Sequence record: MF327004
Strand: one strand, 5' to 3'
From: Shigella phage Sf17
DNA: 64,000 nt
Program-made: the position numbers and the translations under genes
Notes under the pieces: model-generated
What the model saw: the letters and a program-made list of their open reading frames with translations, nothing else
What the model was told of the DNA's origin: nothing
Database searches by the model: none
In this document: positions 23,783 to 48,344 of the stretch, one piece after another
Layout: the number at the start of each line of letters is the position of its first letter
Numbering within the stretch: the first letter of the stretch is position 1

Positions 23783-23897
23783 CCTTTCCGTCTTTTATTT
23801 CAAAGAACTCATCAGATGTGAAATTTTCATTTCGAACTTTCTTGCCCTGTTTCATAGCTTCGAGAGCTTCTTCGTATGTCATTTTTGGTGTCTCCAA
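23691..23897 (-). CDS. hypothetical protein
   Basis: 68-aa ORF, co-oriented. Confidence 0.4.
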   Translation of the reverse strand: METPKMTYEEALEAMKQGKKVRNENFTSDEFFEIKDGKVVCEMGYPMAAWYKGEPWQKTGWSIFNETL

Positions 23898-24088
23898 AAT
23901 TCAATGTCAATAAGTTCCTGTGCAATACTCTTCAGATTCCCTTTCAAGAAAACCTTTTCAGAGTTAGGTAGGCTTGCATTATCAATGAGTCTATTCATTC
24001 TGTCAAAAAGAGTTTTCTTCCGATTCTTGATAGTCTCTTTTGAAGCACCTTGCATCATGGCAAGATGAGTTCTTCCACGGTGGCTCAT
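23879..24088 (-). CDS. hypothetical protein
   Basis: 69-aa ORF, co-oriented. Confidence 0.4.
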   Translation of the reverse strand: MSHRGRTHLAMMQGASKETIKNRKKTLFDRMNRLIDNASLPNSEKVFLKGNLKSIAQELIDIEFWRHQK

Positions 24089-24285
24089 AGACGTTCACCT
24101 TTAAGGTAACCTGTCTTATCCTTGATAATCTTACCTCCAGCAATAAAAATATCAACCTTGCGAAGATTTTCATTAGAAAGCTTGAGGTGCTTATGGCTAC
24201 TGCAAATGATGATGCACATAGTCTCAATCTCACTTTGAGAATATCCAGCACATTGCAGTTGAACTTCAATTTCTGAAATAGTCAT
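24085..24285 (-). CDS. hypothetical protein
   Basis: 66-aa ORF directly downstream of DNA polymerase on - strand. Confidence 0.4.
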   Translation of the reverse strand: MTISEIEVQLQCAGYSQSEIETMCIIICSSHKHLKLSNENLRKVDIFIAGGKIIKDKTGYLKGERL

Positions 24286-24346
24286 ACAAGTCTCCTATAC
24301 AATATATAGTATAAGGTACTCTTCCATGAGCACCTTGTCAACACTA

Positions 24347-32846: not shown

Positions 32847-32908
32847 TAGTCAGTAACTACTACAAAGCCCTGTACAGACGTATGGGGCTTTTTCGTATGG
32901 AGAGTACA

Positions 32909-33949
32909 ATGGAACAATACACCTTAACAAAGCTCCCAGAGAGCGTTACACACGTCTTTATTGACTCTGATAGCATTGCTTACAAAGGTGCTTGTGTAGT
33001 TGAAAAAGCAAAGTACAAGTATGTGAATAAAATCACTGCTGAAGAATCCGACGCTTTTGATAGTGCAAAACTGGCAGCACAATGGCTGTCTGACCAAAGA
33101 GTTTTAACTGAAGAGTTAGGACTTGACTTTGATGAAGATGAATGGGAAAGACAGACTTGGAAGGAGGCTAAGAGTGAAGCTGAAGCAATTATGGCTACAC
33201 AGCAAGTTCTTCAGGAGTGGTTGAAAGTCGTTGGTAAAGAACGCAAATGGATGGGTTACCTTACTGAGAAAGGTGTTCACAAACACAAGGATATCAAAGG
33301 TCTTGAACACCAATACCAAGGTAACAGAAAAGAAGCTGTAACACCTACACACCTAGTTGCTTGTCGTGAGTATCTTCTGTCACGACCAGAGTTTAAGCTC
33401 CTAAAGGGGGGCTTCGAAGCAGACTCTATCGTTATTGCAAAAGCTGAGAAGATGGGTAAAAAAGCTGCTCTGATGAGTATTGATAAAGACCTTCGTCAAG
33501 CTGAAGGAACTTACTGTATTGATATGACTTACGAGAAAGCTCCATTAATTTTCATTGCAGATAATAACGTTGGTGAGATTTGGGATTGCCCTATCAAATC
33601 TAAACCGAAAGCTAAGAAGACAGTCGGAGTAGGTTTTAAATTCCTCTGCTATCAAGCTGTAGCAGGTGATAATGCAGATAACTACTTCGGTTTAAAAGGT
33701 GCTGGTAAGGTTGCAGTGATGAATGCACTGGAAGGTAAAACTACCTACAAAGAGTGCTTAGACGCAATCTATGAGCTTTATGCTAAGAAAGAGTCATACA
33801 CCTATGAATCATGGGATGGTCAGATTGTGACAAGAACTCCACTAGAATTAATGGAGCAACACTTCTGGATTGCTTATCAAGAACGAAATCCTAAAGATGA
33901 TTTTACGTTTAAAAAATACAATTGGGAGCCAGTTATGAATGAAGATTAA
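32909..33949 (+). CDS. 5'-3' exonuclease / flap endonuclease
   Basis: N-terminal acidic cluster VFIDSDSIAYKG and GDNADNYFGLKGAGKVA (HhH-like) typical of FEN family; likely start ATG 32909 after GGAG (track start 32882). Confidence 0.6.
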   Translation: MEQYTLTKLPESVTHVFIDSDSIAYKGACVVEKAKYKYVNKITAEESDAFDSAKLAAQWLSDQRVLTEELGLDFDEDEWERQTWKEAKSEAEAIMATQQVLQEWLKVVGKERKWMGYLTEKGVHKHKDIKGLEHQYQGNRKEAVTPTHLVACREYLLSRPEFKLLKGGFEADSIVIAKAEKMGKKAALMSIDKDLRQAEGTYCIDMTYEKAPLIFIADNNVGEIWDCPIKSKPKAKKTVGVGFKFLCYQAVAGDNADNYFGLKGAGKVAVMNALEGKTTYKECLDAIYELYAKKESYTYESWDGQIVTRTPLELMEQHFWIAYQERNPKDDFTFKKYNWEPVMNED

Positions 33950-34439
33950 AGGATTTGGAAATTGCCCTGTTTATGGACATTGGGTTTCACTGTGCGGGGA
34001 AATTGACCCCGCTAACTATTTTGGTTTTGTCTATTTAGTATACTGTAAGAAAACTGGACAATATTATATTGGAAAGAAACAATTTAATAACGTCACTAAG
34101 AAAAAGGTTGCTGGAAAGACCAGACGTAAAGTCGTGACAAAAGAAAGTGATTGGATGACTTATCAAACATCTTCTGAATACATTAAGAAAGATATTGAAT
34201 CTTTTGGTGAAAAAGAGTTTGACTTCTACATCATCCAGACTTACTATACGCGAGGTGGCTTAGTTTATGGCGAAGCTAACCTACAACATAAGTTTGACGT
34301 CATGACAAAAAGGATTGACTCTAAGCTTCGACTCTTCTACAATGCAAACATTGCAGCAATCAAGTTTCTTACAAAAGAGACTTATGATGAAGCTGAGAAG
34401 AGAATCACTAAAATCATGAAACTTAATGAGAGAGTTTAA
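33939..34439 (+). CDS. GIY-YIG-type endonuclease-like protein
   Basis: Segment GFVYLVYCKKTGQYYIGKK fits GIY-(10-11)-YIG spacing; free-standing between replication genes. Confidence 0.45.
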   Translation: MKIKGFGNCPVYGHWVSLCGEIDPANYFGFVYLVYCKKTGQYYIGKKQFNNVTKKKVAGKTRRKVVTKESDWMTYQTSSEYIKKDIESFGEKEFDFYIIQTYYTRGGLVYGEANLQHKFDVMTKRIDSKLRLFYNANIAAIKFLTKETYDEAEKRITKIMKLNERV

Positions 34440-34656
34440 AATGTTTAATAAAATCAAAAATGACCATGTTTCTAAAATCCAGAGTGGTGTAGCAGCACTG
34501 AAGGAAACTATCAGTAAAGCTAAGTCAGCTACAGAAGCTGAGATGGATGCTCTGGAATCACAAATTCAACATCTGTTAAGCAAACGTGTTGAACTCAAAG
34601 AACGAATGGACTATATTGAGTCTCAACAAAAGTTGTTTGAAGATAAGGAGGCTTAA
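34426..34656 (+). CDS. hypothetical coiled-coil protein
   Basis: 76-aa ORF, overlapping neighbours. Confidence 0.4.
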   Translation: MREFKMFNKIKNDHVSKIQSGVAALKETISKAKSATEAEMDALESQIQHLLSKRVELKERMDYIESQQKLFEDKEA

Positions 34657-35411
34657 TGTTTAATTCCAGAGAATCCGTAAGAAATTGGAATCTACGTTGT
34701 GGCAATAATCCAAAAGAACCATACAGCACAGAGTATTGGGAATCACTGAAAAGCCAATCTCTGTGTATGCTTGAAGAAGCTAGAGAGTTAGTCGCAGCAG
34801 TAGAAGCCAAAGACCCTGTTGAGACCCTTGATGCTCAAGCTGATTTGCAGTATGTACTTGATGGTTTAATTTTCCTGACACAACATGACCATGATGGTGC
34901 TATCAAGGCTGTTTGTGAAAACAACAACCTCAAATACACAGACGACTATCAAGAAGCTCTACAGCGAATGTTTGATATTGAGAAACGTACTGGTGATGAA
35001 TGTTACCTGCGTCAATCAATCATCGAAGGTAAAGAGTGGTTTGCGATTATTCGCAAGTCTGATGGTAAGATTATGAAACAGTCTAATCTTCCAAAAGTTC
35101 AACTTGAAAGTTTTATTGCAGAAGTTGACGCAAAAGAATTATTTGTGGTAACATCTGACACATGCGTTATCTGCCAAGGACTGATTGGAAGTCTTGGTAG
35201 TCTTGGCATTAAAAACTTTTCTAAAGTTGAACCAATCTCTTCAAAAGCAGATAAAGATTTCTGCCGTGAGAATGGATTATGGCTTGCGGATATTGTGTAC
35301 TATGATGGTGAGAAGTTCCATGTAACCTCATATCCGAAATTGAATTATGATGCAATCAACCTCAAGCAGTGGTTGAAAGGAGTCGGTTATAATGGATTCA
35401 CAGAACATTAA
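34656..35411 (+). CDS. hypothetical protein (N-terminal region vaguely MazG/NTP-pyrophosphohydrolase-like)
   Basis: 251 aa; N-terminal helical region with conserved acidic residues (EEARELVAAVEAKD, LDGLIF); assignment unverified. Confidence 0.3.
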   Translation: MFNSRESVRNWNLRCGNNPKEPYSTEYWESLKSQSLCMLEEARELVAAVEAKDPVETLDAQADLQYVLDGLIFLTQHDHDGAIKAVCENNNLKYTDDYQEALQRMFDIEKRTGDECYLRQSIIEGKEWFAIIRKSDGKIMKQSNLPKVQLESFIAEVDAKELFVVTSDTCVICQGLIGSLGSLGIKNFSKVEPISSKADKDFCRENGLWLADIVYYDGEKFHVTSYPKLNYDAINLKQWLKGVGYNGFTEH

Positions 35412-35718
35412 TAAAGGTGAAGAAGTGGTGGCAAAAAGCCACTTCTCCAACTACAACCTCTCTATGACAGTGTTTATGAATGATTCACTGTTAGACAAGT
35501 ACGGAGAGAAGCCAGAAACGATTCTGGATAATGAACAAGTATTAGCAGCAGTGTTGTATAAGTATGGCTTAAATATTGATAAACCGTACTCTTACGAGAT
35601 TTGCCAGCACAGAAATACTTTTGGTAAAGTTGTTGTAGCCCCCCTGTTCATGGGTGTAGAGCGCACAGATGACCAGTGGATTTACTTGAAACGAAACTTG
35701 GATAGATATCATGTCTAA
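35392..35718 (+). CDS. hypothetical protein
   Basis: 108-aa ORF. Confidence 0.4.
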   Translation: MDSQNINKGEEVVAKSHFSNYNLSMTVFMNDSLLDKYGEKPETILDNEQVLAAVLYKYGLNIDKPYSYEICQHRNTFGKVVVAPLFMGVERTDDQWIYLKRNLDRYHV

Positions 35719-36046
35719 AATTAAGAAGTTAACTAAAGAAGAAATCAAAGCTGGTGAAGAACTAGGCAATGATAAGTTTGGTGAGACATTACATCATGGT
35801 GACTTTGTAATGTACACTGAAGATTGCAAAGGTCGCAGCGATATCAAATTTGGACGAGTTGTCTGCAAAGTACGTGGTAACTTTTCAATTGCAAGACTTG
35901 AAGAAGATATTAGTGAGAAACTTGACATGGCATTCGATGAAGGTAAACGTTACTGGTACATGAATACAATGTCTAAAGGTTCACTAACAAAAGTGTCACA
36001 GAAGTTCATTGAACTCTGGGAAAGTAAAAAGATTTTTAGCATTTAA
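35711..36046 (+). CDS. hypothetical protein
   Basis: 111-aa ORF followed by terminator. Confidence 0.4.
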   Translation: MSKIKKLTKEEIKAGEELGNDKFGETLHHGDFVMYTEDCKGRSDIKFGRVVCKVRGNFSIARLEEDISEKLDMAFDEGKRYWYMNTMSKGSLTKVSQKFIELWESKKIFSI

Positions 36047-36053
36047 TCTCTAA

Positions 36054-36078
36054 GGGGTCTCTTCGGAGACCCTTTTTC
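36054..36078 (+). terminator. rho-independent terminator (UUCG tetraloop)
   Basis: GGGTCTC-TTCG-GAGACCC followed by T5. Confidence 0.6.
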
Positions 36079-36097
36079 ACCTGTAGGATTTAATATA

Positions 36098-38332
36098 ATG
36101 ATTACTACTATTCGCAAATCAGACGGTACAATCGTACCATTCGAACCAGAACGTTTAAATAAGTGGGCTTCATGGGCTGACAAGAGAGGAATTATCTGGT
36201 CAGAAGTTGTAATGGAAGCTATGAAGCGTGTCTATGAAGGTTGCACAACAAAAGAAATGCACCAAGCTATGATTGACGTTTGTATTGATAAGCAAACTCA
36301 AGAGTACTCTGATATGGCTGGGAGACTACTTCTTGGCATTATCTACAAAGAAGCTTTTGGTGGATTTACAAAGGTTCCTCAATTACTTCCATTTGTGATG
36401 AAGATGGAGCAGATGGGGCTTTGGGAGCATATGGATTACACACCTGAAGAGATTGACTATTTACAAGGTCACATTGTACATTCAAAAGATATCTCTTATG
36501 GGTATGCAGTACTGAAGCAGTTCCGTGATAAGTATGGAATCCGTGACATTAAAAGTGGTAAGCTGTTTGAGTCTCCACAGTTTATGTTCATGGGTATGGC
36601 TATGAAATCCTTTGAAAGACAGCCTAAACAGCGCCGTTTAGATGATGTTATTAAGCTCTACACATATCTATCTGACCTGAAGATTAATGCCCCTACACCG
36701 TATCTGAATGGTCTGAGAGCTACAAAATCTGGCTATGCTTCATGCTGCCTAATTAAAGCAAACGATACTGCTGAATCTCTTGGCATTGCTACAAAAGTAG
36801 CTTATGACATGACCACTAAGCAAGCAGGTATTGGTATGCTGATGGAGACCAGAACAATTGGTGATGGAATCCGACAAAATACTATTGAGCATATGGGAAA
36901 ACTCCCTTATTATAAGCTTGTACGTGCTGCTGTAGAAGCTAATAAGCAGAAGAGTCGTGGTGGTTCAGCTAATAACTTCTTCACTGCATTAGACCCACAG
37001 ATTGAGGATTTGCTACGCTTGAAGCACCCTACAACGGTTCCTGCAAAGCGTATTAATGAAATGGATTACTCATTTGGTGCAAATGATTACTTCTGGCAAT
37101 GTGTACAGTACGATACAGATTGGTTGCTATTCTCTTACAAAGACGCACCAAGACTGTATGATATGTTCTACACAGCAAGTGCTGATGAATTTGCTATGGC
37201 AGTAGGTCACGCAGTTCATACAGGTGTTAAACATAAACGTGTAAAGGCTCGTGAGGTTGCCAAGTTGTTTATTCAGCAACGTTATGCTACAGGACGTGTT
37301 TACCCGTTCTTTACTAACAACGCAAACTATCATACACCTTTCAAAGAGCCTTTGAAAATGTCAAACCTGTGTATGGAGATTGTCTTACCAGTTCATGGTT
37401 TTGAGGATGAAAGAGACCTGTATAGCTACACAGCCAAGAAAGAAGATGGTGAAGTTGCTCTTTGCTTCCTAGCTAGTTTGGTTGCAGGGAGAATCACAGA
37501 AGATGAATACGCTGACGTTGCTTATTATGCTCTTGCAATGGTTGACTCCGTTATTGACCTTATGGATTATCCGTATCCGTCAATGCGTAACCATGTTCAG
37601 AAGCGTCGTTCTGTTGGTATTGGCCTTACTAATGTGGCTCATTACCTTGCGAAGAACTATGTGAACTACTCATCAAGGGCTGGTAAAACTAAACTTCATG
37701 AGTTGGCTGAGATGCACTCTTACTTCTTGCATGAAGCATCTTTAAGACTCGCAAAAGAGCGTGGTGTACCAGAGTACATGCAGTTTACTAAGTACCCTGA
37801 CGGTTGGGTTCCACCAAAGACTGCTAACAAGAAAATTGATGAAAAGCACGATGCAAAACTTCGTTATGATTGGGATGACCTGTCACATCGAATCAAAGAA
37901 AATGGAGGTATCCGTAACTCTGTGTTAGAGGCTTACATGCCTAATGAGAGTTCTTCTCTGGCAACTAACACGACAAACGGTCTGTACCCTATTCGTGACT
38001 TCATCTTAACTAAGAAGTCTGCAACTGGTAACGTTCTGTTTATTGTACCTGATTATGAAGAGTTGAAGTATGTATATGAAATTGCTTGGGATATTGATAC
38101 ATTTGATATGATTGATTGCTATGCAATTGTTCAAAAATTCACTGGTCAAGCTATCTCTTCAGATTTCTATGTTGACTACTCGAAGTCTAAGAAGGTATCA
38201 TTAGAGCAAGCTTTGAAGTACATGATTTATGCAAACCTTGTTGGTTTGAAAACTATGTACTACCTGAACAGTCGTATCGGTGTTGGCAAATCAGCACTAC
38301 AAGATGCCTACTGTGAGGGTTGCGGCGTTTAG
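36098..38332 (+). CDS. nrdA: ribonucleotide reductase class Ia large subunit
   Basis: 744 aa; segments NLCMEIVLP, SSSLATNTTNG, C-terminal KTMYYLNSR and thiol pair YCEGCGV as in NrdA. Confidence 0.9.
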   Translation: MITTIRKSDGTIVPFEPERLNKWASWADKRGIIWSEVVMEAMKRVYEGCTTKEMHQAMIDVCIDKQTQEYSDMAGRLLLGIIYKEAFGGFTKVPQLLPFVMKMEQMGLWEHMDYTPEEIDYLQGHIVHSKDISYGYAVLKQFRDKYGIRDIKSGKLFESPQFMFMGMAMKSFERQPKQRRLDDVIKLYTYLSDLKINAPTPYLNGLRATKSGYASCCLIKANDTAESLGIATKVAYDMTTKQAGIGMLMETRTIGDGIRQNTIEHMGKLPYYKLVRAAVEANKQKSRGGSANNFFTALDPQIEDLLRLKHPTTVPAKRINEMDYSFGANDYFWQCVQYDTDWLLFSYKDAPRLYDMFYTASADEFAMAVGHAVHTGVKHKRVKAREVAKLFIQQRYATGRVYPFFTNNANYHTPFKEPLKMSNLCMEIVLPVHGFEDERDLYSYTAKKEDGEVALCFLASLVAGRITEDEYADVAYYALAMVDSVIDLMDYPYPSMRNHVQKRRSVGIGLTNVAHYLAKNYVNYSSRAGKTKLHELAEMHSYFLHEASLRLAKERGVPEYMQFTKYPDGWVPPKTANKKIDEKHDAKLRYDWDDLSHRIKENGGIRNSVLEAYMPNESSSLATNTTNGLYPIRDFILTKKSATGNVLFIVPDYEELKYVYEIAWDIDTFDMIDCYAIVQKFTGQAISSDFYVDYSKSKKVSLEQALKYMIYANLVGLKTMYYLNSRIGVGKSALQDAYCEGCGV

Positions 38333-38387
38333 TTTTAATAACTATGAGGGTCGTAAAAGACCCTCTAAAATTAACTTGGAGAAAGGT

Positions 38388-38663
38388 ATGCTAGATTTAA
38401 TTCGCAATGCGAGAATACGTAGCAAAGACAACTCACTATATTTATTTTATATTCCAAGACGGTCTTTGTATTATATTGCAGACTTAGACTTAAAAGTTAA
38501 GATGCCAGATGGTTCTTGGAAAGAACATATACGATATATTGATTGTTTTAATCCAAAGCAAACATATGCAAGACCACTTGATATGTTCAACAAGGACAAA
38601 TGGGTTGTTATGACAACAACTGAAGCCAGAAACTTTCTAGATACAGGAATCTTACCAGAATGA
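38388..38663 (+). CDS. hypothetical protein between nrdA and nrdB
   Basis: ATG at 38388 after nrdA stop (track start 38280 overlaps nrdA); 91 aa. Confidence 0.35.
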   Translation: MLDLIRNARIRSKDNSLYLFYIPRRSLYYIADLDLKVKMPDGSWKEHIRYIDCFNPKQTYARPLDMFNKDKWVVMTTTEARNFLDTGILPE

Positions 38664-39733
38664 TTAACCCACATCCAATTTTCTTAGGCGGTGAACGGAA
38701 AACTTTCGATTCACTGAATAAACACTATCCAAAAATCTTTGAACTGTATAAGCAGCAGAAAGCACAAGACTGGTCTGAAGATGAGTTCCCATTTGAACAG
38801 TCACGTTTAGACTTTGAGAGTGTCCCTCAGTCAATGTCTGGTGTAATGCTTGAGATTCTGAAATGGCAATGGGAAGCAGATACACAAGTTGCTAAGAGTT
38901 TAGCTTTTGCCTTTGCACCATTCATCTCTGATGATATCTATGCAACTGCTATCATGAAGCAATCAGAAATTGAGAACCTTCATGCACTAACTTATTCAGA
39001 GATTGTTCGTCAGTGTATCAAGAACCCTGAAACAATCCTTGATGAGATTAACCAGAACGCTGCTGTACAGGACAGATTGAAGACTGTGAACAGAGCACTG
39101 GCAGAACTTCTTGACGAAGGTATTAACTATCGTTTAAGCTATGTTCGTCAAGAGCTAATGGAGAAAGACCCTTTACACTTCCACAAAGTAATCTTGAAAG
39201 GTCTCTTTGCAGTAACAGCACTTGAGGGTATTTCCTTCATGGCATCCTTTGCATGTACCTTTGCACTTGATGCACAAGATAAATTCCAAGGGATTGCACA
39301 AGCAGTACAGAAAATTATGCTTGACGAAATCATTCACACAAAGATTGATATCGAAGCATTAAAAGAAACTTTGAAAGATGAAGAGTGGCAAGAAGCTTTC
39401 CGTCAAGTACTACCAGAGATTAAAGTAATTCTGGATGAAGTAGTTGAAAGTGAAGAGAAATGGTCTTATTATATCTTCTCTGAAGGACGTGCTGTTGTAG
39501 GTTTGAATACAAAACTTCTTCACGAATGGGTTTACTACAACGCTGCTCCATTGTATGATATGTTTGGTATTCCAAGAGACTTCGTAGCTCCTAAAGAACC
39601 ACCTTTGAAATATATGATTAAGAAGATGGAAATTGATAAAGAGCAAAACGCTAACCAAGAACAACAAAATGGTGCGTACCTTTTGAATACCGTTGTTGAT
39701 GATTTAAATTCAGGATTTTTAGAGGTTCCTTAA
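38660..39733 (+). CDS. nrdB: ribonucleotide reductase class Ia small subunit
   Basis: 357 aa; diiron-site ExxH motifs (SEIENLHALTYSEIV, IMLDEIIH) and LEGISFMASFACTFA. Confidence 0.85.
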   Translation: MINPHPIFLGGERKTFDSLNKHYPKIFELYKQQKAQDWSEDEFPFEQSRLDFESVPQSMSGVMLEILKWQWEADTQVAKSLAFAFAPFISDDIYATAIMKQSEIENLHALTYSEIVRQCIKNPETILDEINQNAAVQDRLKTVNRALAELLDEGINYRLSYVRQELMEKDPLHFHKVILKGLFAVTALEGISFMASFACTFALDAQDKFQGIAQAVQKIMLDEIIHTKIDIEALKETLKDEEWQEAFRQVLPEIKVILDEVVESEEKWSYYIFSEGRAVVGLNTKLLHEWVYYNAAPLYDMFGIPRDFVAPKEPPLKYMIKKMEIDKEQNANQEQQNGAYLLNTVVDDLNSGFLEVP

Positions 39734-39975
39734 TGACTTATGTAATTTACTCAAAAGATGGATGCCCACAGTGTGTGACTGCTAAGAACTTTGCTCAGGC
39801 TCGTGGCTTAGACCATGTTGTTAGAATGCTTGGGAAAGATTATGAGCTAAGTGACCTGATGGATATTGCAAAGATACCTGTTCGTCAGATGCCTTTCATT
39901 ATGAAGGTTGAAGACAATGAAATGAAACCTGTTGGAACACTACAGAACTTTATGGCAGAGGTGAATAATGCTTAA
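39733..39975 (+). CDS. glutaredoxin/NrdH-like redoxin
   Basis: 80 aa with CPQC active-site motif near N-terminus; directly after nrdB. Confidence 0.6.
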   Translation: MTYVIYSKDGCPQCVTAKNFAQARGLDHVVRMLGKDYELSDLMDIAKIPVRQMPFIMKVEDNEMKPVGTLQNFMAEVNNA

Positions 39976-40168
39976 ACGTTTATGGGATGGTTTTGTTGAA
40001 GATGCTCCGATGATTGCTCTGGCATTCATGGTTACTAGCCTGTTTACTGATTTAAAACAAGGTGCTCTATTTGGAGCTATGCTAGTATGGGTTATCTTTG
40101 AGATATTAGATATCAAACATGATTTGAGTGGAAAGCTTAAAAAGCTTATTGAAAAGTTTTCTAAGTAG
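39968..40168 (+). CDS. small hydrophobic protein
   Basis: 66-aa ORF with hydrophobic core (IALAFMVTSLF ... LFGAMLVWVIF). Confidence 0.35.
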   Translation: MLKRLWDGFVEDAPMIALAFMVTSLFTDLKQGALFGAMLVWVIFEILDIKHDLSGKLKKLIEKFSK

Positions 40169-40178
40169 AATTAATATA

Positions 40179-40204
40179 AGGGTCTCTTCGGAGACCTTTT
40201 TTGT
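40179..40204 (+). terminator. rho-independent terminator (UUCG tetraloop)
   Basis: GGTCTC-TTCG-GAGACC followed by T7. Confidence 0.6.
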
Positions 40205-40217
40205 ATTAGGAGTCAGA

Positions 40218-42362
40218 ATGGTTAAAGTACAAATTATTAAGAAAGACGGTTCACTGGAAAAACCAAATGTAAATAAAATCGTCGAAGCAGTTACCAAGTC
40301 AGCTAATAGAGTTGGCTACAAAGAGTTACCACTAGAAGTTATCCATGCTCTTGAATCAGCCTTTATGAGACTGCTTGTCAGAGCAACTAATCAGAATGCT
40401 ATGCTCATCTCTGTAGATGATGTTCACAGTATTGTGGAAGGAACTCTGGCAGAGGTAAACCATGAAATCTATGAGTCATATTCAACCTACAGAAACTATC
40501 GTAAAGAGGTTGCACAGAATTGGGATGAACTTTACCAGAAAACTAAAGACACACTCTTCTTAGGTGACCGTGAGAATGCTAACTTTGACAGTAGCTTAAT
40601 CTCTACAAAAGGTTCAATCATCCGTGGGTATCTGACAAAAGAAATCTTTAAGCAGTATCACTTGACACCAGAAGAAGCAAGTGCTATTGAAGATGGATTC
40701 ATTTATATCCATGACTTAAGAGATTTAATCTTCGGTGGTATTAACTGTTGCTTGTTTGACATTGGAAGTGTCTTGAAAGGTGGTTTTGAAATGTCCGGCA
40801 TCGAATACTGTGAACCAAAGTCTGTACTTTCAGCTTTACAGGTTATTGGTGACGTTGTACTCTCAGCAACTGCACAGCAGTTTGGTGGGTTCACTATCCC
40901 AGAGATTGACAAGGTTCTTGTGCCATATGCTAAGAAGTCTTTTGAGTATCATCTGGAAAAAGCAAAGCAGTATAATATCACAGGGAGAGGTGGTGCATAC
41001 CACTATGCTAAAGAACAACTTCAGATTGAGCTAACCCAAGGCTTCCAATCTCTGGAAATGAAACTGAATACAGTTCCTTGCAGCCGTGGTGACTTTGCAT
41101 TCACAACCTTAACATTTGGTTTACTCGAACCAGATATGGCTAGTGAAGATAACCGCTTGCAATTTATGATTGCGAAGACTATTCTTGATGTGAGAATGAA
41201 TGGTCAAGGTAAATCTAAGAAGCCTGTTGTATTCCCTAAACTGGTTTACATTTATGATGAGACAAGACATATGCTAGACCCTTGGCAGGGAACTCTTTAT
41301 GACAAAGCTATTGAGTGCTGTTCTAAAGCTATGTACCCAGACTTCTTAAGTGTTTCTGGTCATGGTTCTGTTGCAGAAGCTTTTGAGCGTTCAGGTGCAG
41401 TCATCTCTCCAATGGGTTGCAGAGCTTTCTTATCTCCATATCATGATGAAGATGGTAAAGAGTTCTACACAGGGCGAGCAAATATCGGTGCAGTATCTCT
41501 TAATCTGCCAATGATTTACAAGTATTCTGAAGAGAATGGTTTAGACTTCTGGACAGAACTTGACAAGTATCTTGAGATGATTAGAAGCTTCCATAAAAAG
41601 CGTTATGAGATGATTGCTAATATGCCAGCAAGTTCTAACCCTCTGGCATTCACACAAGGTGGTTTGTATAAAGGTCATAAGAAGCCAACTGACAAGATTG
41701 GTTGGGATACTGTGAAGTCTTTTACAGCCTCTTTCGGTGTCACTGCATTGGATGAGTTGACAGTCCTTGCACAAGGTAAGAGATTACATGAGTCAGACGG
41801 TGATATTGCAAGTAAGGTTTTAAACTACCTGAATGGCAAACTGGAGCAGTTTAAACAGGAAGATGGTTTCTTGTATGCCCTCTATGGTACACCTGCTGAG
41901 AGCCTTTGTGGTACACAATTGAAGCAGTTTAGAAATATGTTTGGAGTTGTTAAAGGTGTATCTGATAAAGAATACTTTACAAACAGCTTCCACATGAATG
42001 TTGGTGCAGATATTACACCATTTGAAAAGCAAGACTTAGAAGAACCTTTCTTCCATGCTTGTAATGGTGGTCATATCCAGTACGTTCGTATTGCTAATCC
42101 AGAGAATCATAAAGCTATTAGGGCTTGTGTGACAAGAGGTATGGGTAAAGGCTTCTATCAAGGTGTTAACTTTGACTTGGCAATCTGTGAGAACTGTGGT
42201 CACCGTCCAAGTGCAGATGTTGAATTGTGTCCTAAGTGTAACTCACATGATATCTCTGTGATTAACCGTGTATGTGGATACCTTGGTTGGACTAAGATTA
42301 AAGGTACTTCCAGAATGAATGATGCAAAAATTGCTGAAATTCAGGATAGAAAATCTATGTAA
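40218..42362 (+). CDS. nrdD: anaerobic ribonucleoside-triphosphate reductase
   Basis: ATG 40218 after terminator and AGGAG SD; C-terminal glycyl-radical motif RVCGYLG and Zn-ribbon CENCGH ... CPKCN. Confidence 0.9.
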   Translation: MVKVQIIKKDGSLEKPNVNKIVEAVTKSANRVGYKELPLEVIHALESAFMRLLVRATNQNAMLISVDDVHSIVEGTLAEVNHEIYESYSTYRNYRKEVAQNWDELYQKTKDTLFLGDRENANFDSSLISTKGSIIRGYLTKEIFKQYHLTPEEASAIEDGFIYIHDLRDLIFGGINCCLFDIGSVLKGGFEMSGIEYCEPKSVLSALQVIGDVVLSATAQQFGGFTIPEIDKVLVPYAKKSFEYHLEKAKQYNITGRGGAYHYAKEQLQIELTQGFQSLEMKLNTVPCSRGDFAFTTLTFGLLEPDMASEDNRLQFMIAKTILDVRMNGQGKSKKPVVFPKLVYIYDETRHMLDPWQGTLYDKAIECCSKAMYPDFLSVSGHGSVAEAFERSGAVISPMGCRAFLSPYHDEDGKEFYTGRANIGAVSLNLPMIYKYSEENGLDFWTELDKYLEMIRSFHKKRYEMIANMPASSNPLAFTQGGLYKGHKKPTDKIGWDTVKSFTASFGVTALDELTVLAQGKRLHESDGDIASKVLNYLNGKLEQFKQEDGFLYALYGTPAESLCGTQLKQFRNMFGVVKGVSDKEYFTNSFHMNVGADITPFEKQDLEEPFFHACNGGHIQYVRIANPENHKAIRACVTRGMGKGFYQGVNFDLAICENCGHRPSADVELCPKCNSHDISVINRVCGYLGWTKIKGTSRMNDAKIAEIQDRKSM

Positions 42363-42371
42363 GTAGTTGAC

Positions 42372-42410
42372 AAGGTGGTGTAGGTCTTGATAGGCTTACA
42401 TCACCTTTTT
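42372..42410 (+). terminator. rho-independent terminator after nrdD
   Basis: AAGGTGGTG - 18-nt loop - CATCACCTT (one G-U pair) followed by T5. Confidence 0.45.
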
Positions 42411-42425
42411 ATTGGAGATAATAAA

Positions 42426-42608
42426 ATGTTGAAAATTGGCAAGGTTTACCTTTTCGTTGCAGGAAAGTCTAATCGCACACTTGAGGCTGTCCTCAAACAT
42501 GTATCTGAAAATAAATACACTGTGTCTTGGCAAGGTTCTAATGGGGTATGGTATGACGAGGACTTAACAAAAAACGTTTGGAAAGTGTATCAAGAGGTCA
42601 CAGCATGA
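42426..42608 (+). CDS. hypothetical protein
   Basis: ATG 42426 preceded by GGAGA SD (track start 42387 lies within terminator); about 60 aa. Confidence 0.4.
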   Translation: MLKIGKVYLFVAGKSNRTLEAVLKHVSENKYTVSWQGSNGVWYDEDLTKNVWKVYQEVTA

Positions 42609-42862
42609 GCTATGATTTTTGGCCTAAATTTTGGTTATGGTTTCTTGGGATTGCATTAGTAATTCTGATAGGTTTTGCTGTGTATGACAGTTACCACACT
42701 AAGCTTTGGATGACTGCAAACCATTGTCAGCAAACGTCACAGAGTAGAAATTACCTATACTATATGACAGTCATATCAGGCAACACTACAATCATCGTCC
42801 CACAAATCGGGACAGAGTACCTGTATGTTTGTGATAACAACCAAACAATATGGTGGTATTGA
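42578..42862 (+). CDS. putative membrane protein
   Basis: 94 aa; hydrophobic segment FWLWFLGIALVILIGFAVY. Confidence 0.4.
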   Translation: MESVSRGHSMSYDFWPKFWLWFLGIALVILIGFAVYDSYHTKLWMTANHCQQTSQSRNYLYYMTVISGNTTIIVPQIGTEYLYVCDNNQTIWWY

Positions 42863-42963
42863 TGATGATTAAGACATTCTTGTTAGTCACCTTAGTAGGC
42901 TCTGTCTTACTAGGTTTCTTGTTAGGGCTTTTATACAACACATTGAAAGGAAAGAGAAATGAC
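42862..42963 (+). CDS. small hydrophobic peptide
   Basis: 33-codon ORF MMIKTFLLVTLVGSVLLGFLLGLLYNTLKGKRND, start overlaps previous stop (TGATG), stop overlaps next start; below ORF-track cutoff. Confidence 0.3.
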
Positions 42964-43351
42964 TAAATTAAATAAAAATCAAATGGACTGGCTTAAAGAC
43001 TATGCTTTAGAGTGTGGCTCTTGTGAGAAAACTCACAGAAAATACTCAGAGTTTTACATAGCATGTACTCTTTTAATAACTGACTCTGTTATTGATGACG
43101 CAAAGGATGATGACATTGAACTCCCTACGGAGTTGAGTGATAAAGTCTTAGTAGTAACTGGAACATGGTCAGATTCATATGGTACAGAAATTGGTGACAT
43201 GTCTTTCTACAGTATTCAGCAAACAATGAATCCAAAGTATGTTGCTTTGATGACTCGTGCTCAGGAAGATGAACTGCTTCAGGAATTTATTAAAGAGCAT
43301 TGTGAAGAGTACGTCACAAAACATGTAAGTTTTGAAGTTGAGGTGTGCTAA
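42959..43351 (+). CDS. hypothetical protein
   Basis: 130-aa ORF between membrane ORFs and nrdG. Confidence 0.4.
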   Translation: MTKLNKNQMDWLKDYALECGSCEKTHRKYSEFYIACTLLITDSVIDDAKDDDIELPTELSDKVLVVTGTWSDSYGTEIGDMSFYSIQQTMNPKYVALMTRAQEDELLQEFIKEHCEEYVTKHVSFEVEVC

Positions 43352-43836
43352 TGAACTACATGGAAATACGAAAATTCGATACAGCGAACGGTGAAGGTGC
43401 TCGTGTCAGTCTTTTTGTAGCTGGCTGCAAACATCACTGTGAAGGTTGTTTTAACAAGGAATCTTGGAAGTTTAATGCTGGTAAAGAGTTTACTTATGCA
43501 AACCTTTATGGCATTATGCAGATAATGAATGATGATGGAATCAGTGGTCTATCTATCCTTGGTGGAGAGCCACTTGATGATAGGAATGTTCAGACAGTAA
43601 CAAATATCTGTAAGCGGATTAAAACCGTATACCCAGACAAATCTATATGGTTATGGACAGGTTACCAGCTACATGAAAAAATCAACTTAGAAGTGATGAA
43701 ATATGTTGACGTGGTAATAGATGGTAAGTATGATGCTTCTAAACCGACACACAAACCGTATCGTGGGTCTGACAATCAAATACTTTGGAGAAAAGAATAT
43801 GGCTGGCAAGGCGACTGTCAATGGAGAGCAGAATAG
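43351..43836 (+). CDS. nrdG: anaerobic ribonucleotide reductase activating protein (radical SAM)
   Basis: CxxxCxxC cluster CKHHCEGC near N-terminus; about 160 aa; ATG 43351 (track start 43345 is GTG). Confidence 0.8.
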   Translation: MNYMEIRKFDTANGEGARVSLFVAGCKHHCEGCFNKESWKFNAGKEFTYANLYGIMQIMNDDGISGLSILGGEPLDDRNVQTVTNICKRIKTVYPDKSIWLWTGYQLHEKINLEVMKYVDVVIDGKYDASKPTHKPYRGSDNQILWRKEYGWQGDCQWRAE

Positions 43837-43861
43837 AGCGGGTTTTCGAAGAGGTGAGATT

Positions 43862-44119
43862 ATGACCATCTCTTGCAATAGCTCACTGTTTGGAGAGTAT
43901 AAGGTTAACCCTAACACTCTTGAAGATTGGCAGAAGTACACAAAGAGTCTTTTTGATACAACTGGATTAGACGCTTTAAAAAAGCTTGCAGAAGTTGAAG
44001 TTTTCAGAGTAAAATATAAGTCACACATGTCAAACTTCTACGCAACAAATATTGTTGAAGATGACAAAGTGGTTTCCGTAACAGAAGAAGAACTGAAACA
44101 GTTCTGTATTAAACTTTAA
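43862..44119 (+). CDS. hypothetical protein
   Basis: ATG 43862 after nrdG stop (track ORF 43721 overlaps nrdG); about 85 aa. Confidence 0.35.
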   Translation: MTISCNSSLFGEYKVNPNTLEDWQKYTKSLFDTTGLDALKKLAEVEVFRVKYKSHMSNFYATNIVEDDKVVSVTEEELKQFCIKL

Positions 44120-44134
44120 TAGAGAGATATTAAA

Positions 44135-44392
44135 ATGGGAATTTTTTCAAACATGAAAGCAGGTTTCTTAGCAGCTCTGGCAAAAGCAGCAGCTATCGTT
44201 TCAATGACTGGTAAGCAGGTTGGAGTAGACGCTTCAGCAGTTGCACAGGTTCTTGCAAGCCAGATTGAACAGCAACCTTACATCCATGTTGGACGTGGTA
44301 AAGGTGGCAAGAAGCAAGCTCATCGCCAAACTGGTGCAGCAGCAATTAAACGTGCAGCTAAAAAAGCTCGCAACCGCAAACGTAGCAAGTAA
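44135..44392 (+). CDS. small basic protein
   Basis: 85 aa; Ala-rich N-terminus, strongly basic C-terminus (KRAAKKARNRKRSK). Confidence 0.4.
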   Translation: MGIFSNMKAGFLAALAKAAAIVSMTGKQVGVDASAVAQVLASQIEQQPYIHVGRGKGGKKQAHRQTGAAAIKRAAKKARNRKRSK

Positions 44393-44403
44393 GGATTATT
44401 AAA

Positions 44404-44715
44404 ATGGAAAAGATTTATAACACTCGTAAAATTCAGATTTCTATCCTGTGCCAGTTTATGGCTGATAAACACAAATCCCACTATTGTGGTACAGGTTTCC
44501 TTACTTTAGGTGGTGGCTACATTAGCTTTAAAGAAGCTGTGAAGATGTACAACGAGCACCCTGAAGATGACAAAGAGTTGAAACAACTGAAGCTTACTTA
44601 TGACAAGAAGCATAAGAAAATTGTATGCTTGAACAACCTTATCAAGCCAACTGAAAACGTTTATGATGCAATTGGTGAGGAAGGTTTCTTAAAAGTCTTG
44701 AAAATAGCTCAGTAA
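44404..44715 (+). CDS. hypothetical protein
   Basis: 103-aa ORF followed by terminator. Confidence 0.4.
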   Translation: MEKIYNTRKIQISILCQFMADKHKSHYCGTGFLTLGGGYISFKEAVKMYNEHPEDDKELKQLKLTYDKKHKKIVCLNNLIKPTENVYDAIGEEGFLKVLKIAQ

Positions 44716-44728
44716 ACGTATATGATTA

Positions 44729-44756
44729 GGGAACTGTAAAAGGTTCCCTTTTTATT
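44729..44756 (+). terminator. rho-independent terminator
   Basis: GGGAAC - tgtaaaag - GTTCCC followed by TTTTTATTTT. Confidence 0.55.
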
Positions 44757-44767
44757 TTGGAGAAATC

Positions 44768-45283
44768 ATGTACCATTCAAATCTGAAACGTGCTGCTGCA
44801 ATGTCTGTTCTTCGTCTTGATTTTGATGAGCGTCAAGAGTTCATCGATTCACATCAGTATGACCCTTCAAATTCTAACCACATGGTACTTTGGAACCGTG
44901 GTAAGTTTCGTGATAGTGCCTTGTTCCAGTACTACCCTCACTATACTATTGACAACCTCTATGAATACTGTGTTGTCAAGAACACTATTGCAACTCTTAA
45001 TAAGCTTTGTAGATATTCTGGAAAGAAAGCTTTCACATTAGGCCACCATAAGCCCGTGACAAAAGGTGGAGAGCACCATTGCTCGAACTGGTTTATCCAG
45101 ACTCAAGAAGATAACCAGAAGCAGGGAGAGAAGCTTCCAGAAGCCCCTAAGATGACTTGGGAGGAACAGAAAGCATATCTTAAAAATAATATGCCACCAA
45201 TGCTTGACAGGGAATATGCAGTTCTGGCAATATCACTCTTGTTGAAGCTTGAGACAGTTTATGAGGCAACTTATCATGGCTAG
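44768..45283 (+). CDS. HNH-type endonuclease-like protein
   Basis: His/Cys-rich core GHHKPVTKGGEHHCSNW resembles HNH motif; free-standing gene. Confidence 0.4.
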   Translation: MYHSNLKRAAAMSVLRLDFDERQEFIDSHQYDPSNSNHMVLWNRGKFRDSALFQYYPHYTIDNLYEYCVVKNTIATLNKLCRYSGKKAFTLGHHKPVTKGGEHHCSNWFIQTQEDNQKQGEKLPEAPKMTWEEQKAYLKNNMPPMLDREYAVLAISLLLKLETVYEATYHG

Positions 45284-45554
45284 AGAACAATGGGATATCA
45301 AAGAGCTTATTAGCGAAGCTGGAAATGGTAGTGAGATGTATATGATACGTGGTCACGTCCCAGATGCACTTGCTATTGAGATGATAGACCACTACTCCAA
45401 CGGATTCTATAAAGAGTTTGGAGAGCCAAATATTGAACGTACTTGGACAAAACCAGTACCAGACGGAACAGGAAACTGTTCAGTTATCTACCACATTGTA
45501 GACCCAAAGAAATGTAAATCAGCTATGGCTGTAACATTTGTAACTTTTGACTGA
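45276..45554 (+). CDS. hypothetical protein
   Basis: ATG 45276 overlapping HNH stop; about 92 aa. Confidence 0.35.
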   Translation: MAREQWDIKELISEAGNGSEMYMIRGHVPDALAIEMIDHYSNGFYKEFGEPNIERTWTKPVPDGTGNCSVIYHIVDPKKCKSAMAVTFVTFD

Positions 45555-46446: not shown

Positions 46447-46454
46447 CAACTTTA

Positions 46455-46470
46455 GGGGCTGAAAAGCCCC
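46455..46470 (+). other. intercistronic hairpin GGGGCT-gaaa-AGCCCC
   Basis: Perfect 6-bp stem with GAAA loop between prs and NAMPT genes; identical to the hairpin inside the rIIB promoter spacer. Confidence 0.4.
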
Positions 46471-46490
46471 ACTTTGAGAGAGATAAAAAG

Positions 46491-48308: not shown

Positions 48309-48322
48309 AACAGTATGATAAG

Positions 48323-48344
48323 AGGCTCCTACGGGAGCCTTTTT
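48323..48344 (+). terminator. rho-independent terminator (UACG tetraloop)
   Basis: AGGCTCC-TACG-GGAGCCT followed by TTTTT. Confidence 0.6.

Follow-up and report, generated by a model that had tools for sequence, protein, structure and literature searches.

The replication and nucleotide-metabolism genes of Shigella phage Sf17 are interspersed with three small open reading frames (ORFs), two of which resemble nucleases, and the question raised by this locus is whether they are mobile homing endonuclease genes (HEGs) or genes that belong to the phage. The DNA under study is a stretch of 64,000 nucleotides (nt) from sequence record MF327004, referred to hereafter as the window. An initial annotation had described a GIY-YIG-like ORF after an exonuclease gene, an ORF between nrdA and nrdB at a homing site known from T4-like phages, and an HNH-like ORF before prs. 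All three were regarded as likely selfish elements that mark points of genome plasticity. The ORFs are indeed present in the window, and are designated here ORF1, ORF2, and ORF3 (lengths in amino acid residues, aa):

33939-34439, plus strand: ORF1, 166 aa, ATG start; Pfam PF19835 (SegE_GIY-YIG); core gene of the Ounavirinae
38388-38663, plus strand: ORF2, 91 aa; phrog_2652; faintly DUF1653-like, with no nuclease motif
44768-45283, plus strand: ORF3, 171 aa; phrog_3500; divergent HNH-like (beta-beta-alpha-Me) protein; core gene of the Ounavirinae

With a probability of roughly 0.8, ORF1-ORF3 belong to the replication/nucleotide-metabolism module as resident genes passed on vertically, and are not mobile HEG cassettes; the agents of real homing in this group of phages are HNH_3/AP2/NUMOD genes together with group I introns. 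For the Sf17 genome the result is mainly corrective, namely that ORF1-ORF3 should not be listed as mobile elements. They are, judging by sequence, genes already known, since their products are 97-100% identical to deposited, annotated gene products of Shigella phages KPS64 and Sf13 and fall into known families.

Fixation and selection of ORF1, ORF2, and ORF3

The 13.5-kb stretch around ORF1-ORF3 displays 98.6-99.2% DNA identity to Shigella phages KPS64, Sf19, 3HA14, and Sf13, and 280 phage records match at the DNA level, essentially all of them from Felix-O1-like myoviruses (subfamily Ounavirinae). Both KPS64 and Sf13 have been placed in the genus Mooglevirus. On the basis of these DNA-level matches and of the taxonomy of KPS64 and Sf13, the window is assigned to Mooglevirus (Ounavirinae, Felix-O1-like), and is not T4-like. 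The gene order opens with a primase/helicase, a 287-aa protein, the 5'-3' exonuclease, ORF1, a 76-aa ORF, MazG, and two small ORFs. It continues with nrdA, ORF2, nrdB, glutaredoxin, a small membrane protein, nrdD, small ORFs, and nrdG, and closes with further small ORFs, a DUF7390 gene, ORF3, a 92-aa ORF, prs, and nadV. The surroundings of ORF1 thus include an exonuclease, MazG, class Ia and class III ribonucleotide reductases (RNRs), glutaredoxin, prs, and nadV. The genes that directly flank ORF1 and ORF2 are as follows:

32882-33949, plus strand: 5'-3' exonuclease gene, 355 aa; phrog_107, with weak FEN/PIN-like Pfam matches
36098-38332: nrdA, nucleotide-metabolism module
38660-39733: nrdB, nucleotide-metabolism module

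The comparison set consisted of 36 Ounavirinae loci, 7 from annotated phage records and 29 from IMG/VR. The latter were retrieved with nrdA as a neutral probe, and 17 of these 29 contigs are metagenomic. Three loci duplicate genomes already sampled, which leaves 32 distinct genomes in the comparison of the exonuclease/ORF1 junction. Each of the three ORFs is present in 36/36 loci. The relatives had been expected to define insertion points by lacking the ORFs, but no ORF-less allele of ORF1, ORF2, or ORF3 was observed among them. The amino acid identity of ORF1 to the window protein ranges from 85 to 100%, as compared to 87-100% for the exonuclease, and that of ORF3 (75-100%) tracks the identity of prs (76-99%). 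The spacings are equally regular. The distance from the exonuclease gene to ORF1 is constant at -8 nt, or carries in addition an insertion of 477-486 nt, the interval from nrdA to nrdB measures 312-330 nt in 35/36 loci, and the gap between the DUF7390 gene and ORF3 is 53-57 nt. The sole positional exception is ORF2 in Erwinia phage phiEa21-4. Values of dN/dS (the ratio of nonsynonymous to synonymous substitution rates), calculated by the Nei-Gojobori method for the window versus five relatives, are 0.03-0.05 for ORF1 as compared to 0.01-0.06 for the exonuclease, 0.05-0.10 for ORF3 as compared to 0.08-0.15 for prs, and 0.08-0.20 for ORF2 as compared to 0.01-0.05 for nrdA and nrdB. For ORF1 and ORF3 the ratio stays at 0.03-0.10 even at dS values above 1.5. 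Given their presence in all loci, their unchanging spacing, and the low dN/dS values, the three ORFs appear to be fixed, selected, and vertically inherited.

The domain content of the proteins points in the same direction. The profile searches for GIY-YIG, HNH, and NUMOD domains that had been proposed with the initial annotation placed ORF1 above threshold as a GIY-YIG protein (PF19835, 97 bits), gave sub-threshold HNH signals for ORF3 and no nuclease catalytic domain for ORF2, and returned no NUMOD match. Indeed, no NUMOD, AP2, IENR1, helix-turn-helix (HTH), or zinc-finger module was detected in ORF1-ORF3 with Pfam, NCBIfam, or PHROGs, whereas control HEGs of the relatives do show AP2, NUMOD1, or NUMOD3 in the same type of search. 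Likewise, no co-conversion tract is centered on any of the three ORFs; the only tract observed is centered on a neighboring HNH_3+AP2 gene. The description of ORF1-ORF3 as selfish elements is not borne out by ORFs that are universally present, fixed in synteny, under purifying selection, and devoid of recognition modules. Conservation at the same positions in all of the relatives (apart from the displaced ORF2 of phiEa21-4) had been named as one half of what would speak against mobility, and this is what the 36 loci show.

The opposing view is that ORF1, ORF3, and perhaps ORF2 are free-standing homing endonucleases now spreading by cutting ORF-less alleles in co-infecting phages. It can draw on the placement of ORF1 in a Pfam family that takes its name from SegE, a homing endonuclease of T4, on the HNH-like motif of ORF3, on the label "GIY-YIG homing endonuclease" given to ORF1 in KPS64, and on the presence of the HNH endonuclease MobE in the nrdA-nrdB interval of T4. 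Felix-O1-like phages, moreover, are rich in HEGs, with six HNH endonuclease genes reported in Felix O1 (PMC3185647). Ongoing spread is difficult to reconcile, however, with zero ORF-less alleles in 36 loci, identities that track those of the flanks, and such low dN/dS values at high dS. There is also no target-recognition domain, and ORF2 displays neither a nuclease signature nor similarity to mobE, nrdB.1, nrdA.1, or nrdA.2. The canonical HEGs of the same phages, in contrast, exhibit HNH_3, AP2, and NUMOD architectures and are sporadic in their distribution. Active homing by ORF1-ORF3 is considered to be highly improbable.

Several points nevertheless weigh against vertical inheritance of resident genes as the full explanation. 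The 36 loci (32 distinct genomes) were sampled out of roughly 290 related records. An ancient homing endonuclease that had swept to fixation and was then domesticated would produce the same pattern. The roles that are proposed below for ORF1-ORF3 we infer from their context. In addition, the ORF3 protein of the window reaches no curated HNH threshold in Pfam or NCBIfam, and an invariant glycine precedes its catalytic histidine where many HNH enzymes have a metal-binding aspartate or histidine, such that ORF3 could be catalytically inactive.

Homing endonucleases of related phages and the empty sites of Sf17

The homing endonucleases of the Ounavirinae are HNH_3/AP2/NUMOD genes, some of them associated with group I introns, and they occur sporadically at five sites, none of which coincides with ORF2 or ORF3. 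Two of the sites are listed below as they appear in the window:

33925-33949, no strand assigned: empty, HEG-minus site at the exonuclease/ORF1 junction, where a 166-aa HNH_3+AP2 gene is inserted in relatives
about 23800-24346, minus strand: empty HNH-AP2 site after the DNA polymerase gene, occupied in KPS64

The insert at the exonuclease/ORF1 junction, with a length of 477-486 nt, is found in 13/35 scorable loci, which correspond to 13/32 distinct genomes. Its carriers belong to Mooglevirus and to Felixounavirus, as well as to at least one uncultivated lineage of intermediate position. It encodes a 166-aa protein with the Pfam domains HNH_3 (34.6 bits, above threshold) and AP2, and by this architecture the protein is classified as a canonical free-standing HNH endonuclease. 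Two subtypes occur, with inserts of 484 and 478 nt, and these share only about 53-55% protein identity. In HEG-minus phages, including the window, the junction reads AATTGGGAGCCAGTT followed directly by ATGAATGAAGATTAAAGG. In HEG-plus phages it reads GGGTGGACACCAA, then the ATG of the HNH ORF, and at the far end CTT followed by ATGAATGAAGATTAAAGG. The HEG of the 13 genomes is bounded by TGGGAGCCnnT on one side and TATGAATGAAGATTAAAGG on the other. A comparison of the HEG-minus and HEG-plus sequences reveals that the insertion is precise and that about 15 nt upstream of it have been recoded. Coordinates tied to this junction in the comparison loci are 2434-2934 in L003 and about 7345-7845 in L027.

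The sequences flanking the insertion bear the signature of co-conversion. Between the window and Henu11, both of which belong to Mooglevirus, the identity of the exonuclease gene in successive sliding windows towards the insertion is 100, 97, 100, 91, 89, 87, and 75%. A comparison of Henu11 with a HEG-plus Felixounavirus, over the same sliding windows, yields identities that increase from 82 to 96%. HEG-minus and HEG-plus members of Felixounavirus, compared with each other, fall in identity from 99% to 73% along this same 3' half of the exonuclease gene. The co-conversion tract extends over the final ~600 nt of the exonuclease gene and, in the Mooglevirus pair, spills 150-300 nt into ORF1. Base-level junctions together with a measurable co-conversion tract thereby define an HNH-AP2 homing system at the exonuclease/ORF1 junction. 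Given that the phage is a natural HEG-minus recipient, homing in Felix-O1-like phages is directly testable by crosses.

Four further sites are occupied in other relatives. The nrdD gene is split at codon ~404, which corresponds to about position 41430 of the window. The insert measures 730 nt and contains an HNH_3/NUMOD1 gene in 9 loci (for example, L006 23496-24225), and in 2 loci it is a bare group I intron of 304 nt (RF00028 at 55 bits in L028, 15274-15571). A MobE-like HNH+NUMOD3 gene, 35-36% identical to T4 MobE, follows nrdD in 7 loci, and an HNH-AP2 gene occupies the prs/nadV spacer in 6 loci, the corresponding site of the window (46447-46490) being empty. After the DNA polymerase gene, KPS64, which is otherwise 99% identical, contains the HNH-AP2 gene gp36, and Salmonella phage BPS17W1 has a group I intron within its DNA polymerase gene as well as an HNH gene. 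The nrdD and DNA polymerase genes of the window are uninterrupted. A search with Rfam detected no RNA family in the window, and group I introns were found only in relatives. Since a tblastn search of the 64-kb window with eight endonuclease queries (five Ounavirinae HEGs, T4 MobE, SegE, and I-TevI) returned nothing, the sites of the window are considered to be empty throughout.

The Felix-O1-type HNH HEGs (HNH_3 with AP2 or NUMOD1) thus share a family and a neighborhood with the loci under study, and one of them has its insertion point exactly at the ORF1 start, accompanied by the co-conversion tract described above; no such HEG is found in the window. They differ from ORF1-ORF3 in domain architecture and in being sporadic (13/32 genomes for the exonuclease/ORF1 site, and 9/36, 7/36, and 6/36 loci for the others). 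The suggestion that the three ORFs mark points of plasticity survives for the exonuclease/ORF1 junction only, and there by virtue of an absent HNH_3+AP2 gene; the nrdA-nrdB interval and the ORF3 slot are fixed. For this group, which includes therapeutically used phages, the real map of plasticity comprises the sites in and after nrdD, the prs/nadV spacer, the site after the DNA polymerase gene, and small ORFs between nrdD and nrdG. The nrdD-nrdG interval, at 547-1625 nt among the relatives, is the most plastic part of the region, and one of its ORFs in the window is the following:

42387-42608, plus strand: 73-aa accessory ORF downstream of nrdD, present in only 4/36 loci

This ORF is sporadic to the extent that it is absent from the 99%-identical phage Sf13. 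The next ORF (94 aa, 42578-42862) is also patchy among the relatives.

ORF1 and the SegE-type GIY-YIG family

The start of ORF1 overlaps the stop of the exonuclease gene by 11 nt. Its product matches PF19835 over residues 22-138 with an E-value of 1.1e-27 and a score of 97.1 bits (cutoff 25), in keeping with its original description as a GIY-YIG-like ORF following the exonuclease gene. The GIY motif is represented by G29-F30-x-Y32 and the YIG motif by Y43-I-G45, and both are invariant in ten homologs with identities down to 47%, as are H14, W15, E112, N114, and the segment F133-Y134-N135. R62 is nearly invariant across the Ounavirinae homologs and one metagenomic relative. Upon addition of a cyanophage homolog and T4 SegE to the alignment, F30, Y32, Y43, G45, E112, Y134, and N135 are kept. 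Because Y32, Y43, G45, E112, and N135 are retained down to these two proteins, the GIY-YIG catalytic residue set of ORF1 is, as judged by alignment, intact. Following the YIG motif there is an insert of ~19 aa, rich in lysine and arginine, at about residues 50-70. Relative to SegE the protein has an N-terminal extension of ~28 aa, and it ends 28 aa past the catalytic domain. No C-terminal DNA-binding or target-recognition domain was identified with Pfam, NCBIfam, or PHROGs, whereas in T4 SegE or I-TevI site specificity is conferred by a C-terminal part that recognizes DNA.

The resemblance to T4 SegE is thus one of catalytic domain. Both proteins belong to PF19835 and share F30-x-Y32, Y43-I-G45, E112, and Y134-N135. 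SegE, however, contains 205 aa, with a C-terminal extension of ~100 aa that is absent from ORF1, and ORF1 has its own N-terminal extension and basic insert; the pairwise BLASTP alignment is insignificant (E=0.046). SegE is sporadic and mobile among the T-even phages, unlike ORF1, which is fixed in all sampled Ounavirinae. T4 I-TevI, which served as a control, matched PF01541 together with zinc-finger and DNA-binding domains as expected. More generally, BLASTP comparisons of ORF1-ORF3 with T4 DenA, MobE, NrdB.1, NrdA.1, NrdA.2, and I-TevI gave no significant similarity. Word-indexed homolog searches retrieved close relatives only (21, 3, and 11 proteins for the three ORFs, respectively). Searches of the Protein Data Bank (PDB) with single sequences and profiles of ORF1-ORF3 yielded nothing meaningful, and matches to protein A and a TRP-channel kinase were rejected as spurious effects of repeats or composition.

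The family extends well beyond the Ounavirinae. A tblastn search of 50,697 phage records located ORF1 in 834, including about 400 cyanophages, and in IMG/VR there were at least 566 confirmed matches to the PF19835-type family among the first 600 pattern matches listed, from which 80 diverse loci were taken. These loci contained 75 complete ORFs with a median length of 148 aa. As 68/75 are 183 aa or shorter and only 7/75 have an extra domain, the typical family member is a single-domain protein like ORF1. A general linkage of ORF1 to RNR genes was also considered, and was only partly borne out. In 18/80 loci, mostly cyanophage-like, the flanking sequence retrieved contains nrdA or nrdB, and in cyanophage-like loci the homolog is positioned 0.2-4.6 kb downstream of nrdB on the same strand.

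The product name attached to this family requires comment. The best PHROG of ORF1 is phrog_447, which is labelled "NAD synthetase", and RefSeq gives the same name to the ORF1 homologs of Sf13, Mordin, SUSP2, BPS17W1, and phiEa21-4, whereas KPS64 annotates ORF1 as the GIY-YIG homing endonuclease noted above. The homolog of phiEa21-4 scores 99.9 bits on PF19835. A cyanophage protein of 146 aa called "NAD synthetase" (Synechococcus phage ACG-2014f, L043 3941-4381) matches PF19835 with an E-value of 3e-52 (176 bits), and the product name is therefore an annotation error. A cyanophage "NAD synthetase" is listed among auxiliary metabolic genes (AMGs) in two publications (PMC7238727, PMC10452541), and is probably this PF19835 GIY-YIG family. 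The incorrect RefSeq label has, in that event, leaked into the cyanophage AMG literature.

What ORF1 does can be approached through its neighbors and its analogs. T4 endonuclease II (DenA) is likewise a small GIY-YIG protein without a separate DNA-binding domain, encoded in a nucleotide-metabolism cluster near the RNR genes. In T4, denA directly follows nrdB, an order echoed by the cyanophage-like homologs of ORF1 downstream of nrdB. The two proteins differ in that DenA matches PF01541 and ORF1 only PF19835, BLASTP produces no ORF1-DenA alignment at E-values up to 10, and DenA is not among the structural matches of ORF1, so that any resemblance would be functional and contextual only. T4 DNA is protected by hydroxymethylcytosine; we know of no comparable DNA protection in Felix-O1-like phages. 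By analogy to endonuclease II, ORF1 might participate in host-DNA breakdown that feeds the nucleotide-salvage enzymes, and this is tentatively deemed the most likely of its possible roles. ORF1, and possibly ORF3, would be a domesticated nuclease of little sequence specificity, and ORF1 may act on DNA together with the adjacent exonuclease whose stop its start overlaps.

Domestication could also have produced a weapon, directed at competing phages or at host defenses, in which case the DNA to be cut would be that of unrelated co-infecting phages or of mobile elements and not that of the host. ORF1 has no specificity domain, though, its structural match is weak, and its extreme conservation across genera and cyanophages would be unusual for a gene engaged in an arms race, all of which make such a function decidedly unlikely. 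In phiEa21-4, for example, ORF1 is the best-conserved protein of the region, at 63% identity versus 53% for the exonuclease, 57% for nrdA, 51% for nrdB, and 44% for prs. On a broader scale, ORF1 may belong to a large, overlooked family of single-domain SegE-type GIY-YIG proteins, fixed in the Ounavirinae and present in about 400 cyanophage records, that was domesticated from homing endonucleases and took on a core role in host-DNA degradation or in the handling of branched DNA, but the odds of this being so are placed somewhat below even. As the best-conserved protein of the region across genera, ORF1 merits functional attention.

ORF2, ORF3, and their neighbors

ORF2 has a GGAG ribosome-binding site at a distance of 5-6 nt before the ATG, and ends in a TGA stop that overlaps the ATG start of nrdB (ATGA). 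It has no match in Pfam or NCBIfam and no nuclease motif. An exhaustive HMMER search of 1.84 billion representatives found 15 proteins, two of which, an Ig-like and a PPC repeat protein, were rejected as spurious. The family core spans about 60 aa, with Y21, P23, Y28, K38, W44, Y50, R62, F67, and W72 invariant. Five members give sub-threshold matches to DUF1653 (PF07866) over one W...Y...RP..MF segment (E=0.0075-0.06), with a best score of 17.0 bits versus a gathering threshold of 23.5; the ORF2 protein of the window itself shows no match. The tblastn search located ORF2 in 322 phage records, including 30 from Vibrio phages. The protein is fast-evolving, with 33-39% identity in Felixounavirus as compared to 92-96% for NrdA and NrdB.

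In the spacer upstream of ORF2 lies an element of RNA structure:

38346-38365, plus strand: stem-loop GAGGGTC-GTAAAA-GACCCTC, just past the nrdA stop; conserved across Mooglevirus and Felixounavirus

SUSP2-like phages have instead the hairpin AGGGGC-TGAAAA-GCCCCT, and phiEa21-4 the hairpin GGGTCGG-TTAAGT-CCGACCC, at the same place after nrdA, such that the structure is kept and the sequence changed. Because the stretch upstream of the ATG at 38388 is non-coding and contains the conserved hairpin, the 91-codon start of ORF2 is supported over longer RefSeq models, and those that extend ORF2 upstream through the hairpin are probably too long. The hairpin may act at the mRNA level, as an intercistronic element by which the ratio of nrdA to nrdB expression is set.

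The position of ORF2 is shared with the MobE site of T4, where mobE and nrdB.1 lie between nrdA and nrdB, and nrdB.1 overlaps the start of nrdB just as ORF2 does. ORF2 has, in contrast to MobE and NrdB.1, no HNH or NUMOD motif and no similarity to either, and its slot is fixed rather than sporadic. The proposal that it occupies a T4-like homing site therefore holds with respect to the location between nrdA and nrdB, but not with respect to its interpretation, in that the genome is not T4-like, the slot is fixed in 35/36 loci, and a nuclease signature is lacking.

A fixed place between nrdA and nrdB might instead reflect an accessory factor of the class Ia RNR, involved in assembly, cofactor maintenance, or regulation. 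The constancy of the slot, the ATGA overlap onto nrdB, the conserved hairpin upstream, and the purifying selection on the gene would all be in accord with such a role. In phiEa21-4, however, nrdB directly neighbors nrdA, and the homolog of ORF2, gp109, is encoded beside that of ORF3, about 2 kb downstream of nrdB. In Vibrio phage VnaP the homolog is preceded by an annotated DNA polymerase/3'-5' exonuclease gene, and the 10 kb shown contain no RNR gene. As judged from these genomes, ORF2 homologs are not tied to RNR genes outside of Felixounavirus, Mooglevirus, and Suspvirus, and it is their placement elsewhere in Erwinia and Vibrio phages that weakens the accessory-factor proposal. Its far faster evolution than that of NrdA and NrdB, and the lack of a cysteine cluster or of flavodoxin-like features in ORF2, count against it as well. 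An RNR-accessory function is thus unlikely, and ORF2 is best described as a resident gene of the module.

ORF3 yields no Pfam match, but several weak and concordant lines of evidence identify it, with moderate confidence, as HNH-like, which upholds its initial description. In 16 homologs with identities down to 46%, the segments F89-T-L-G-H93, G100-G101, H103-H104, N107-W108, I110-Q111, and D115-N116 are invariant. The motif H93...N107...N116 exhibits the spacing H-(14)-N-(9)-N, which we take to match that of H840/N854/N863 in SpCas9 (the Cas9-type HNH). Weak PHROG matches were obtained to HNH families (2e-5 at best, and 5e-4) and to an "endonuclease VII" family (E=0.005). The NCBIfam model for the RNA-guided endonuclease IscB aligns with residues 59-159 at E=5e-4 (19 bits against a cutoff of 175), and one ORF3 homolog matches Pfam HNH at E=0.0085. 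In an AlphaFold model (pLDDT 67), strands are formed by residues 89-93 and 108-112 and a helix by residues 113-118. Past ORF3's own family, a Foldseek search of BFVD returned mostly viral HNH proteins (E=0.07-1.2, probability up to 0.91). The likeness to Cas9/IscB-type and phage HNH nucleases accordingly consists of a weak IscB match and HNH-dominated structural matches, all below curated thresholds. An hhalign comparison of the ORF3 family with MobE-like and HNH_3 alignments aligned the correct motif but was not significant (E=0.29). The family has no conserved zinc-binding cysteines, and the helical regions flanking the motif have no recognizable relatives.

With both proteins described, a further function comes into consideration, namely that ORF1 and/or ORF3 is a structure-specific nuclease for Holliday-junction resolution or debranching, on which the processing of recombination-dependent replication intermediates ahead of packaging would depend, analogous to T4 endonuclease VII or to Slx1. 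T4 endonuclease VII has a beta-beta-alpha-Me fold, and the eukaryotic resolvase Slx1 is a GIY-YIG enzyme. Both ORF1 and ORF3 are core nuclease-fold proteins without a sequence-recognition domain, ORF1 overlaps the gene for a FEN-like 5'-3' exonuclease, ORF3 has the weak "endonuclease VII" match, and no resolvase or endonuclease VII is annotated in the inspected 97% of the KPS64 genome. The basis of this proposal, however, is context and a missing annotation; ORF3 is devoid of the zinc-binding cysteines that are conserved in T4 endonuclease VII, and the structure searches gave no match to a resolvase. Such an assignment is rather unlikely, and host-DNA breakdown is preferred for ORF1. ORF3 may fill a host-DNA-breakdown or branched-DNA role, or be catalytically inactive.

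The features that surround ORF3 in the window are the following:

44404-44715, plus strand: DUF7390 protein, 103 aa; labelled "putative HNH homing endonuclease" or "HNH endonuclease" in GenBank/RefSeq
44728-44749, plus strand: terminator-like hairpin with a trailing T-run, in the gap that separates the DUF7390 gene from ORF3
45276-45554, plus strand: 92-aa ORF (p92), phrog_4726, between ORF3 and prs

The initial annotation was correct in placing ORF3 upstream of prs, although not directly, for the 92-aa ORF intervenes. ORF3 overlaps this ORF by the same few bases wherever it is present; no homolog of it was detected in BPS17W1. The hairpin at 44728-44749 has its counterpart in an annotated terminator of phage Mordin at the same position, and a second such hairpin is located at 48320-48343. 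Since the two bracket the unit ORF3-p92-prs-nadV, ORF3 is probably co-transcribed with prs (phosphoribosyl pyrophosphate, or PRPP, synthetase) and nadV (nicotinamide phosphoribosyltransferase). The tblastn search located ORF3 in 427 phage records, including coliphage and Klebsiella phage genomes of ~145-155 kb, one of them in the Stephanstirmvirinae. In a Klebsiella phage of the Stephanstirmvirinae, the ORF3 homolog lies 3.4 kb from a gene for the nicotinamide riboside transporter pnuC.

Note that the HNH label in GenBank/RefSeq sits on the DUF7390 gene and not on ORF3; neither Pfam nor NCBIfam gives an HNH signal for the DUF7390 protein. Measured against the window protein, its Felixounavirus counterparts group into discrete identity classes of 49-52%, 70-75%, and 91-92%, with flanks at about 76-89%. 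The 85-aa ORF beside it (44135-44392) behaves likewise, with classes of 51-53% versus 88-100%. The identity classes of DUF7390 suggest allelic replacement.

Two rearrangements near ORF3 were observed in individual relatives. In Henu11 and Mordin, two tandem paralogous ORFs of 149 aa, which have no nuclease domain and are absent from the window, lie between the 92-aa ORF and prs (L003 14381-15309; L004 14022-14950). In a 1355-bp metagenome contig from ENA (P0014), a 259-aa protein consists of a truncated DUF7390 domain fused to a full ORF3 homolog, a fusion that apparently arose by deletion of the intergenic terminator. It represents either a sequencing artefact or a hint of a functional link between DUF7390 and ORF3.

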